DNA of 28,052 nt, taken from IMG/VR virus record IMGVR_UViG_2534682331_000010. One strand, 5' to 3'. A program made the position numbers. Shown one piece after another: positions 6,001 to 9,000 of this stretch. The stretch's first letter is position 1, and each line of letters opens with the position of its first letter. Origin of the DNA: a virus. Its lineage: Duplodnaviria > Heunggongvirae > Uroviricota > Caudoviricetes.

Positions 6001-9000
6001 TCTTGCTGTCAGAGCATCAAAAAATGGTCGCTCTGTTAACTCCGAGATCGTCATGATTTTGCAAGCCGCGATTGATGAAGATAGGTCGCCAAAGTCAGTT
6101 GAGTCATTTGCTCAGCAAGAAGCTGACAAATTCAAAGAGGCGCTGCTTGAGACGCTGAAAACCATGTATGGTAAGGATGCAAAATGAATAAAAAACAGTT
6201 TATTAAGTCAACAACGTCAAGCAAGGAAGAGCTAGAGAAGGAGCTAAACTCCCTGAAATATGCTCTGTGCCTGGTTTACTCAAGACTGCCAATGGAAGAT
6301 AAAAACGCCATTTACAATGAAATGATTAGCAGCCTTGATTTTAACGATAGAGACCTAGCATCCCACCTCAACAGCTTCCGCGTCCCTGAGTAATTCTATT
6401 GCGGATTTGCTTCTTACGGTGGTTTAAGCTGGAGAGCTTGGCTTCTGCTTCTGATATTTGCGCATCCAGATCTTTAAGCTCAAGATCTGAAAGTCGCTGG
6501 TCAAGCAGGGTTTGATTCAACTCAATGTTGTTCAGACGTTCTTCTATGGTCATGATTACTCCTTATAAAAAACCCACCTGACGGTGGGTTTTATAATTAG
6601 ATTTCTGGTTTTATTCTTCCAAAAACCTTTTCTATTCCTTTTTCGTATTCTTCTCTTGTCTCGCTCATCGCTGCGACACCAAGAAGCTTACCGATATGCT
6701 GACGCAAAGCCTTGACACCAATTTCAGAAAGGAACAGGTGCAACTTATCAGATTGTTTTCCGTTCTCGTCTCGGCTGGCTCGAATCTGTTCAAGGATTTT
6801 ACCTTTACTCTTTGCTAGCGGAGTGTATATCTGCATGTTGGTTAGTTGCCCAAAACGAATTGGACGTCCTTTCTCTGGCCTGTTCAGGCCGTACAGTCGA
6901 TACCACTCCTCATATAGCTCATCTGGAAATTCCTTTTCATACTGCCTCGCCTCTTCACGAACAAAGGCCTTGAAGGAATCAATAACCTCCTGTACTTCAG
7001 GTCGATATCCTGCAATAGCATAACCAAGTCCTTTAAGCCCTGCTTTCATTGATGCGGTAACAAGTCTTTGGGCAAGGCTGGCAGATTTTGATCTTGAAGG
7101 CGGTAGTGCGCCAGCTCGATCGGCATTAATCATTGCTGTGGCTATATCACCAATAAGGGCAATATCGTAACCGTGAGCCTCATCAGCGAGTGGATTTGGG
7201 GCTGAGTTTGGGACCGGACTTCTCCATTGAAAAATAAGAGGTTTTTTGAATTTTTCTAGCAGAAATGGATCAACAAAATCAGCCATATAATTCGTATTTA
7301 GAAAACGGTCTACATCCCTACCATGCTCACCGATTCCTAGTAATTTAGCCAGACCAGTTTTACTAACTACAACCGTTTTATCATTATCATCAAGTACGTA
7401 ACATTCTGCATCAATGCCGAAATCATCAATGAAGTTACCCTTTCTGATCGCTCTTAGTGGCTTACCTTCCCATCGTTTTGCCGCTGCTTTCTTTGCTATT
7501 TCAGAACGCTGCTCTTTAGTCAGCGACTTTGCGCGAGCGATACCGCCCTTAGCTTTCCCTTCGCCACTTTTCTTTTCAGTCATAATGCAAGCACCTTTGT
7601 TGTGATGTATGCTTGCATTATATGCACTGTACACACATACAAGCAAGCATAAAACCAAAACAAAATGCTTGCATTACAACCGCGCTACTCCAACTACACA
7701 TTATCATCTGGTATCCTGCACAAAACTAAGGAGGTTGGTGTGAAGCAATTTCTTGCTGCTATGTTCTTATTCATATCTTTTGGGGCTACAGCAGAGTGCT
7801 GGGTCGTTGGAGATATGCGCGGAATAAGCTATTCAGAACGAAATAATTTCCATCCTGAAGAAGATGGTTTTAGTGGAACATTCATCATTAAGACAAGCGG
7901 TGAAGATGCTAGCATCACATATTCTGGGACAGATGCGGGCGGCATGGCTTACAAAGTATTGTCTAAAAACTCCATCATAGGAATCGGCGCGAATGGCGAA
8001 ACTCAACGCGTTATCGACTCATGGGTAATACATCCTACTGGAACAGTTTTAATGTCAAAAACCATTTCCGGTTATGGAAATATGGATTCAACCAAAGCTT
8101 TTGTTGGAAAAGTAAAAAGAAAATGTTAGCGATTGAATCCAATTTCCCATACGTTACTGCTGTGTTGCCTCAGTGGCAAGCAGCGGCCTGATGGCATTCG
8201 CAGCGTTATTCAGCGCTCTTTCATAGGCTGGCGTTCCAGCTTTAGTGTTTGCCAGACGTAAGAGAGCATTCCTTGCTGCTTTGGACTCATACAAGCGCAT
8301 GATTGCACCGAAACCAGCCTCAAGTCCCAGTGATACACCAAGGGTTGCAGTTGCGCCAATCGTTCTAATCCTGTTAGCTTGCGATTGTCCTGTCTGTGTT
8401 ACTACATTTGCGGCGTCCGACCTTGCTGTTTGCTGTAGAACTTCATGAAGAGCATCAAGCTCTTTCATGTGTCTCCCACTGAATATCGTGTTATAGATCT
8501 GACCGTCAGATTGCGACTTCAACTTATTTAACTCGGTAAGAAATTTTGTTGGCGAGTCTCCTGCTTTTTCTGCAATCTTGCTGATATAAGCAGCACGCAT
8601 AGCGTTCTTTCCATCTTCACTAAGAGCTGGCCATATCCTCTTAATATCTGATGGTTTTCTGCTGAATACAACGCTGTTTATTAGCTCTGGAGTAAACTCT
8701 TTTTTAGCTTTGTTGAGATTATTCGCAATCCTTTTATTAAGAACCTTATTGAAGACGTTGGAGTAGTCAGAGTTTGCTTTGACGTATCTGGCGGCCTCTC
8801 CAGCCCCCAAATACCGCGCTGCGTTATTCCTCAAATCCGCCCCCATTGCCCTCTCCACGGCATCAGTTGCGGCTTTCGCGCTATTAGGAAAAACCATGGC
8901 ATCTCCCTGAATACTTTCCCTCAAGGCTGACCGCAACTCTCTCAATAGACCAAAATCTATATCTGGTTTAGCAAGTTCTTCTCGCAAATCGGATAACCCG

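Follow-up and report, generated by a model that had tools for sequence, protein, structure and literature searches.

We analyzed a 28,052-nt window of DNA that carries a P22-like (Lederbergvirus) prophage, with integrase, tailspike, ejection-protein, and lysis genes all present. Its ant moron, the gp16-to-tailspike accessory region holding the immI switch (arc, sar, ant, and mnt), is flanked on one side by the gp20 and gp16 homologues that encode ejection proteins (8154-11350, minus strand) and on the other by the tailspike Head_binding domain (2475-4298, minus strand). Domains of ant are present there, and the antisense RNA sar of the immI region is located at 5440..5507 on the plus strand (Rfam RF00262, 81.8 bits, E=3e-17). 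The Arc repressor gene arc (5672..5860, minus strand; Pfam Arc, E=1.1e-11) is divergent from mnt and likely starts at the internal ATG at 5825; a promoter-like site lies upstream of it at 5889-5861 on the minus strand, found in a consensus promoter scan whose sites were no commoner than in shuffled sequences. The mnt gene (5939..6187, plus strand) encodes an 82-aa Arc/Mnt-type ribbon-helix-helix repressor (Pfam Arc PF03869, E=9.6e-11), and its homologue in phage Emek is annotated as mnt.

Two small genes sit in this ant moron, within the gp16-tailspike interval and beside arc, ant, and mnt. The first, orf69 (6184..6393, plus strand; 69 aa, ATG start, phrog_16466), closes the operon that mnt opens, and the second, orf61 (6368..6553, minus strand; 61 aa, ATG start, phrog_7586), converges on it. 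The upstream neighbor of orf61 is an accessory gene for a P63C-domain protein (6597..7658, minus strand; Pfam P63C, E=1e-13). The gene order is identical in the phages Emek and Kapi1 and in more than 100 loci, and the content of related ant morons varies as a mosaic whose breakpoints coincide with the borders of orf61 (6553, 6564/6565, and 6368). Upstream of orf61 there are at least eight different, unrelated contexts, across which a Shine-Dalgarno-like motif is the sole feature retained. The slot on the other side, in 90 loci, holds orf69 (56), a ClpP-like protein (14), a 105-aa secreted protein (13), or other genes (7), and elsewhere the same slot is occupied by cargo of the exclusion or immunity type (for example SieA and Rap1a).

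The convergent overlap and the two-way terminator

The two genes meet tail-to-tail and share 26 nt on opposite strands (6368..6393), which encode the end ...LNSFRVPE* of orf69 and the end ...TQGRGSC* of orf61. The ATG of orf69 (6184-6186) overlaps the TGA of mnt (6185-6187) as ATGA, which couples translation of the two, and its ribosome-binding site AAGGA (6173..6177, plus strand) lies 6 nt before the ATG, within the 3' end of mnt; the site of orf61, AAGGAG (6559..6564, minus strand), lies 5 nt before its ATG. The overlap, the coupling of orf69 to mnt, the good ribosome-binding sites of both frames, and a bidirectional terminator nearby had all been reported in a first-pass annotation of this sequence and are borne out here. 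The terminator is an intrinsic two-way hairpin at 6567..6592 with the stem CCCACC/GGTGGG (6573-6588) between an A-run and a T-run; an automated terminator scan missed it, and direct folding was used instead. It folds with -15.7 kcal/mol on the plus strand and -17.9 kcal/mol on the minus strand, with z about -4.8 in each case and no shuffled sequence as stable. The hairpin is kept in many loci, and the annotation of phage Emek marks it as a terminator. On the minus strand, the P63C-domain gene precedes the terminator and the ATG of orf61 follows 14 nt behind it.

Folding found no terminator-like structure after either stop codon, and hence none between orf69 and orf61; this lack of an intergenic terminator may be what lets the overlap exist. 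A transcript of mnt and orf69 must therefore cross all of orf61 before it reaches 6567-6592, and a transcript of orf61 would likewise enter orf69 and mnt. The first-pass annotation had described the two genes as mutually antisense at their 3' ends, which is correct as to geometry and understates the extent, since without an intergenic terminator each transcript would span the whole partner gene.

Both open reading frames are protein-coding genes

Both orf69 and orf61 are genuine protein-coding genes, each under purifying selection in its own frame and each with a conserved start, stop, and ribosome-binding site. All 94 loci that carry both genes have the same lengths (210 nt for orf69 and 186 nt for orf61) and the same 26-nt overlap, and these remain constant among 41 unique cassettes that differ by up to 107 of 370 nt (29% nucleotide divergence). 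Outside the overlap, Nei-Gojobori dN/dS is 0.05-0.18 in orf61 and 0.06-0.14 in orf69; the values are pairwise against one reference, and the most distant sequences approach saturation at synonymous sites. Changes at codon positions 1, 2, and 3 number 31, 14, and 66 in orf61 and 25, 14, and 58 in orf69, although such counts cannot separate orf61 from the shadow frame antisense to it (6399-6515, plus strand), which shares its wobble positions. We therefore used pN/pS and the occurrence of stops: the orf61 frame has a pN/pS of 0.20 and stops in none of the 59 unique sequences, versus 0.44 and stops in 24 of the 59 for the shadow frame. It had been suggested that one of the two frames may be spurious, which conservation of only one of them would have indicated; both are conserved.

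Within the overlap there are 9 changes in 26 sites among the 41 cassettes, fewer per site than in the flanks (97/184 and 111/160). In this shared stretch the orf69 frame is held (dN/dS 0-0.25) while the orf61 tail drifts (about 0.2-2). The C-terminal tails encoded here are modeled with low confidence in both proteins and are probably poorly structured; the LNSFR motif of orf69 would dictate the sequence, leaving the last residues of orf61 to drift.

Features and relatives of the two proteins

The model of orf61 is one long α-helix spanning residues 3-59 (AlphaFold2 pLDDT 94), with an acidic N-terminal part and a basic tail. For orf69, three short helices are predicted (AlphaFold2 pLDDT 77), and the model has no PDB match in Foldseek. 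Searches against Pfam, NCBIfam, and PADLOC gave no above-threshold match to toxin, antitoxin, or defence families for either protein, and the matches to PbeC, JetC, XhlA, and DUF3847 are sub-threshold coiled-coil noise. The similarity of orf61 to XhlA (PF10779) is a weak coiled-coil resemblance over residues 3-53 that scores 14.1 bits (E=0.056) against a gathering threshold of 34.7, too low for membership; the 61 residues, modeled as a single long helix, show no hydrophobic membrane-type segment. The XhlA label attaches to extended calls of 89-92 aa for the orf61 homologue, and this extension is probably wrong.

Scans covering one genome from each species turned up no relative of either orf69 or the remote orf61 partner, and the profile search with orf61 found none beyond 42 clusters from Escherichia, Salmonella, and Serratia. 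An exhaustive profile search with orf69 recovered three small remote homologues; P0089, P0092, and P0094 were discounted as low-complexity repeat proteins. One remote orf69-like gene, P0093 (E=3e-4), stands alone in a siphovirus tail region.

Distribution of the pair and loss of orf69

At least part of the cassette is present in 130 of 5426 complete E. coli genomes (about 2%); Salmonella and Serratia have it as well. Coverage of the cassette falls below 80% in 56 of those 130 genomes, and the partial matches listed contain the orf61 half only. Remote versions of the pair, with 50% identity in orf69 and 40% in orf61, overlap by 10 nt (L133-135 and L140) or by 23 nt (L139). Such deeply conserved pairing could be the mark of a functional interaction.

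In 34 of 90 loci orf61 occurs without an intact orf69, which has been replaced or deleted, and orf61 is still under purifying selection there, for example in L129, L020, and L043. Loss of orf69 is of at least three kinds: the 105-aa gene in its place, the ClpP-like gene with a 47-nt remnant of orf69 left behind, and a deletion remnant in L129. Where other cargo has replaced orf69, orf61 abuts it across a 10-nt gap with no overlap. The converse, orf69 without orf61, was never seen in the loci compared, and the sole apparent exception (L127) is cut by the contig end.

Transcription of the two genes

orf61 invariably reads in the direction of the late operon, arc, ant, and the tailspike gene: it shares its orientation with ant in 115/115 loci, with the tailspike gene in 110/110, and with gp16 in 65/65. 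Many loci have a divergent gene whose start is only some 25-30 nt from orf61 on its upstream side. Scans with consensus promoters returned sites no more frequently than in shuffled sequences. The orf61 module seems to lack a promoter of its own; one serving it could lie within the upstream gene. In P22, late read-through of the ant moron in the direction of the tailspike gene has been described, and in P22-like phages the late RNA is antisense to the whole mnt operon (PMC2629481).

We infer the timing of expression of both genes from strand and context. In the lysogen, Pmnt would drive the synthesis of orf69 along with that of Mnt, and orf61 would be made mainly when the Q/gp23-modified late RNA polymerase passes the terminator and traverses the ant moron on its way to the tailspike gene. 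Either transcript would, as RNA, be antisense to the entire partner gene, which may reinforce mutually exclusive expression; the antisense relation would then be a general property of the ant moron and not a dedicated 26-nt device. According to an RNA-seq study of the Kapi1 lysogen, mnt (Kapi1_063) is undetected, and the homologues of orf69 (Kapi1_062) and orf61 (Kapi1_061) are absent from the list of undetected genes given there (PMC12922286). Any lysogenic expression of orf69 from Pmnt may therefore differ between phages. Our preferred reading, to which we give a probability of roughly 60%, is that the two genes are expressed under opposite transcription programmes, orf61 from antiterminated late transcription, and are ordinary accessory cargo for which antisense control is not dedicated. 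As it stands, the pair looks like such cargo beside a secondary immunity switch.

Comparison with known systems

The ant moron of P22, or immI (mnt, arc, sar, and ant, with sieA, orf59a, and hkcC), occupies the same gp16-tailspike position and has the same arc/sar/ant/mnt core (PMC2629481). It also has an accessory gene after mnt on the same strand (orf59a, where orf69 is found here), a late-strand gene converging on it (an unannotated ORF of 121-125 aa), and a two-way terminator. However, P22 has neither orf69 nor orf61, and its terminator lies between the convergent genes instead of outside an overlapping pair; the mnt terminator of P22 has no homology to that at 6567-6592. The closest counterparts are Salmonella phage vB_SemP_Emek and Escherichia phage Kapi1, in which the two proteins are 97-100% identical and the 26-nt overlap and the neighbors are the same. 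Emek differs in an extra gene, orf77, between mnt and orf69, and Kapi1 in the annotation of its orf61 homologue, which is given a 31-residue N-terminal extension and the 'XhlA' motif label.

Tail-to-tail gene overlaps are common in bacteria and phages and are usually short. The pair resembles other convergent overlapping genes in its short 3'-end overlap, in which one frame dominates the constraint and the tail of the other is free, but one of its partners seems to follow a lysogenic and the other a late programme, and they remain paired across deep divergence. It shares with type I and type II toxin-antitoxin systems small adjacent genes, an antisense relation, and asymmetric co-occurrence, and the first-pass annotation had raised a possible regulatory or toxin-antitoxin-like arrangement. 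The toxin-antitoxin-like reading is not supported. A type II system combines co-transcription, a known fold or domain, and obligate co-occurrence, whereas the genes here are convergent and not co-transcribed, show no toxin or antitoxin domain above threshold, and do not always occur together; orf61 survives the replacement or deletion of orf69, and the two are therefore not an obligate toxin-antitoxin pair. Nor is there the small hydrophobic toxin and non-coding antisense RNA of a type I system: both products are hydrophilic and helical, and the supposed antisense partner is a conserved protein, the orf61 strand being constrained at the amino-acid level and not in the manner of an RNA.

Alternative readings of the pair

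The overlap could also be a site of dedicated antisense control, in which convergent transcription or 3'-end pairing is selected, the lysogenic RNA silencing orf61 and the late RNA silencing mnt and orf69 by RNase III or by transcriptional interference, as sar acts on ant. The region already employs an antisense RNA in sar, none of the three diverged versions of the pair has a terminator or spacer between the genes, and an overlap is retained at 26, 23, or 10 nt. The lower rate of change per site in the overlap points in the same direction, but dual coding alone predicts slower change and the numbers are small. The length of the overlap differs between lineages, and folding around the stops revealed no conserved RNA structure on either strand (z = 0.57 and 0.04). 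Rfam gives no match, and orf61 does without any overlap where orf69 has been replaced. Late transcripts in P22-like phages are, moreover, already antisense to the whole mnt operon. On this evidence we regard dedicated control as unlikely.

A more specific proposal is that orf69 is an exclusion or defence factor expressed from the prophage with Mnt, that orf61 is a late protein neutralizing it during the phage's own lytic growth, and that mutual antisense enforces either-or expression; if true, the pair would be a new small self-immunity module. The asymmetry of co-occurrence, in which orf61 outlasts at least three kinds of orf69 loss, is consistent with this, as are the conservation of the pair at 40-50% identity and the exclusion- and immunity-type cargo otherwise held in the slot. 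The asymmetry can, however, be mechanical, because the conserved C-terminus of orf69 lies inside orf61 and blocks a clean removal of orf61. Purifying selection on orf61 without orf69 means that orf61 has a function of its own, the remote orf69-like P0093 stands without a partner, and neither the family searches nor the PDB comparison returned a match, all of which make an effector with its antidote quite improbable.

That just one ORF is a gene and its partner is open by chance is very hard to sustain: both are short and without characterized homologues, and some gene callers omit one (orf61 is uncalled in L118, L119, L121, and L123), but strong purifying selection in both frames, length, start, and stop invariant up to 29% nucleotide divergence, a ribosome-binding site before each, and remote homologues of both arranged alike speak against it. 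The annotation is thus settled in favor of keeping both small ORFs, and a late-strand gene can lie antisense within the 3' part of the mnt operon in P22-like prophages.

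Arrangement of the gene pair

A P22-like (Lederbergvirus) prophage makes up the window and encodes an integrase, an O-antigen-type acyltransferase, a Head_binding-domain tailspike, ejection proteins, Rz and lysozyme. A complete immI-type module, comprising arc (5672-5860, - strand), the sar RNA (5440-5507, + strand; Rfam, 81.8 bits), ant and mnt (5939-6187, + strand; an 82-aa Arc/Mnt-type repressor), surrounds two small ORFs, orf69 (69 aa, 6184-6393, + strand) and orf61 (61 aa, 6368-6553, - strand). As the first-pass annotation described, the ORF list and the sequence place the two in convergent orientation with a 26-nt overlap (6368-6393), in which codon position 1 faces position 1 and position 2 faces position 3. 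The proposed coupling of orf69 to mnt takes the form of an ATGA (6184-6187), the orf69 ATG lying on the TGA of the 82-aa gene, and the sequence bears out both ribosome-binding sites, AAGGA 6 nt 5' of the orf69 ATG and AAGGAG 5 nt 5' of the orf61 ATG on the - strand. The expected terminator, beyond the orf61 start, is the stem-loop CCCACC-TGAC-GGTGGG (6573-6588) between AAAAAA and TTTT, which folds on both strands at -15.7 and -17.9 kcal/mol (z about -4.8), with its foot 14 nt from the orf61 ATG on the - strand. Folding revealed no terminator-like structure after either of the two stop codons (z = 0.57 and 0.04).

Both genes are already in public phage records as hypothetical proteins: the record of phage Emek annotates orf69, orf61 and the terminator, and that of phage Kapi1 annotates the pair. 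They belong to phrog_16466 (orf69) and phrog_7586 (orf61), both of unknown function. Some orf61 homologues, labelled XhlA or "hemolysin XhlA family", are stretched to 89-92 aa (Kapi1_061, at 2763-3041 of locus L002, and proteins P0001-P0004), and the extension is present in one upstream context only. Since the conserved orf61 start is an internal ATG with a ribosome-binding site, the longer versions are probably over-extended calls. The XhlA label sits on this N-terminally extended call, and the orf61 match to XhlA falls short of the threshold, at 14.1 bits against 34.7.

Both ORFs are protein-coding genes

We gathered about 130 homologous loci from IMG/VR, metagenomes and assemblies, and found that all 94 carrying both ORFs keep 186 nt for orf61, 210 nt for orf69 and the 26-nt overlap, although the 41 distinct 370-nt cassettes spanning the pair differ by up to 107 positions. 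Outside the overlap, dN/dS was 0.05-0.18 for orf61 and 0.06-0.14 for orf69 (Nei-Gojobori), each value being a pairwise comparison with the window as the one reference, with synonymous sites near saturation in the most distant sequences. Changes at codon positions 1/2/3 numbered 31/14/66 in orf61 and 25/14/58 in orf69. Because a + strand shadow ORF antisense to orf61 (6399-6515) has wobble positions in common with it, all six frames were compared: the orf61 frame had a pN/pS of 0.20 and stops in none of 59 unique sequences, against 0.44 and stops in 24 of 59 for the shadow frame, which rules the latter out as a conserved frame. The shadow ORF encodes 38 aa in the window and 55-60 aa in some relatives, and is not conserved. 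The invariant lengths, dN/dS, codon-position and six-frame data thus establish orf69 and orf61 as genuine protein-coding genes, and the suggestion that one is spurious is rejected by purifying selection in both frames and fixed lengths in 94/94 loci.

Within 6368-6393, the orf69 end (...HLNSFRVPE) is nearly invariant, with V/I, S/T and P/H changes only, and its LN.(F/Y)R motif is kept even in remote homologues. The C-terminal residues of orf61 are variable (QGRGSC, QGRENC, RGCERC, QVRGSC and others), and the tail dN/dS, based on small numbers, was 0-0.25 in orf69 against about 0.2-2 in orf61. In the AlphaFold2 models, orf61 forms a single long helix (residues 3-59, pLDDT 94) and a tail of low confidence, and orf69 consists of three short helices (pLDDT 77), its C-terminus being weak. 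The shared stretch therefore codes for the tails of two proteins, with orf69 dictating the sequence.

An exhaustive profile search recovered remote orf69 homologues with the same arrangement on their contigs, after mnt in other P22-like prophages (50% identity to orf69 and 40% to orf61; hhalign probability 90%). In loci L133-135 and L140 (L133, 3001-3365; L135, 1944-2308; L140, 2501-2877), a 63-aa gene converges on a 60-aa coiled-coil gene (MTIEERL...) with a 10-nt overlap, and in L139 (1750-2104) the overlap of a 64-aa/60-aa pair is 23 nt. The convergent pairing without an intervening terminator is therefore old, and the length of its overlap is not fixed. An even more distant orf69-like gene (P0093, E=3e-4) stands alone in a siphovirus tail region. 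Complete E. coli genomes gave a match in 130 of 5426, with both genes in 74. These comparisons confirm orf69/orf61 as a conserved convergent pair of real genes in the ant moron of P22-like prophages, the name given in the epsilon34 genome paper to the highly variable region from the ejection genes to the tailspike gene (PMC2629481).

Co-occurrence and proposed roles

We never saw orf69 without orf61, the sole apparent exception (L127) stopping at a contig edge, and orf61 lacked orf69 in 34 of 90 loci, where it is still under purifying selection. In 13 loci, a gap of 10 nt, with no overlap, separates the orf61 stop from the end of an mnt-coupled gene for a 105-aa secreted protein. In 14 others, a ClpP-like gene fills the orf69 slot and a 47-nt remnant of the orf69 3' end persists, and in L129 the last orf69 codons alone survive. 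The remnants (3187-3233 in L057, L060 and L045; 3187-3254 in L129) sit downstream of orf61 and share the stop-codon position. The ClpP-like replacement and deletion loci represent independent losses of orf69 with orf61 kept. Such asymmetry would fit orf69 as an effector and orf61 as its antidote, but it may be purely mechanical, because the conserved orf69 C-terminus lies inside orf61, and we regard an effector-antidote pair as improbable. The wider proposal of a toxin-antitoxin-like arrangement is unsupported: the two genes, being convergent, are not co-transcribed, they lack toxin or antitoxin domains and obligate co-occurrence, and, as regards type I systems, the pair has neither a hydrophobic toxin nor a non-coding antisense partner.

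Proposed transcription of the pair

The orf61 strand is that of ant (115/115 loci), the tailspike gene (110/110) and gp16 (65/65), i.e., the late-operon strand. At least eight kinds of upstream context precede orf61, with a Shine-Dalgarno-like motif as the sole retained feature, and the breakpoints between mosaic segments coincide exactly with 6368, 6553 and 6564/6565; the mobile unit is therefore a ribosome-binding site plus ORF, with no promoter. In many loci a divergent mnt-strand gene (SieA, Rap1a-like or a small secreted protein) has its start only 25-30 nt from orf61. Where this is a SieA or Rap1a-like exclusion/immunity-type gene (L119, 3398-4036; L129, 2481-2975; L135, 2354-2701), the distance from its start to the orf61 ATG is about 25-45 nt, so that orf61 must be overlapped by its promoter or its read-through transcript. 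In some contexts the start codon of orf61 lies within a TTCTAT-17-TATAAT/TATAAC-like motif. In other loci a terminator hairpin abuts the orf61 ribosome-binding site.

[quoted passage not shown] We infer a two-programme model, in which orf61 would be expressed by transcription coming from upstream, mainly that of the antiterminated late transcript across the ant moron, and orf69 would be made from Pmnt together with Mnt. With no intergenic terminator, the Pmnt transcript would have to traverse orf61 completely to reach the terminator at 6567-6592 and, in loci that lack this terminator, extend into the mnt-strand gene that comes next; the late transcript would be antisense to orf69 and mnt. The mutual antisense geometry noted in the first-pass annotation is thus real and exceeds 26 nt, but a dedicated regulatory role is unsupported. 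A study of Kapi1 lysogens, the one pertinent dataset identified, reports mnt as not detected and, without giving values, does not name the orf69 and orf61 homologues among the undetected genes (PMC12922286).

In P22 the logic is the same: mnt is followed by orf59a, the mnt terminator and a convergent, unannotated 121-125-aa ORF on the late strand. Its terminator, however, lies between the genes, neither of which shows homology with orf69 or orf61. The 121-125-aa ORF (L132, 3850-4227; BK000583, 13849-14226), which may be the hkcC of the literature, carries an HExxH motif (HECAH), has the sieA promoter on one side and the mnt terminator on the other, and has homologues in many of the collected loci.

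Other features of the prophage

The ant gene (4509-5438, - strand) has an in-frame stop at codon 53, where intact homologues such as that of L005 (309 aa) have Q, and it is probably a pseudogene; arc, sar and mnt appear intact. Between arc and ant lies a 57-aa ORF (5502-5675, - strand; phrog_17642, unknown function), translationally adjacent to arc, whose 3' end sar overlaps from the opposite strand. Relatives carry other genes in this slot, e.g., the 73-aa orf73 in Emek. A complete Gram-negative porin gene (24765-25847, + strand; Porin_1, E=4e-152), with the RusA region on one side and the lysis genes on the other, is oriented against the phage genes and looks like accessory cargo.
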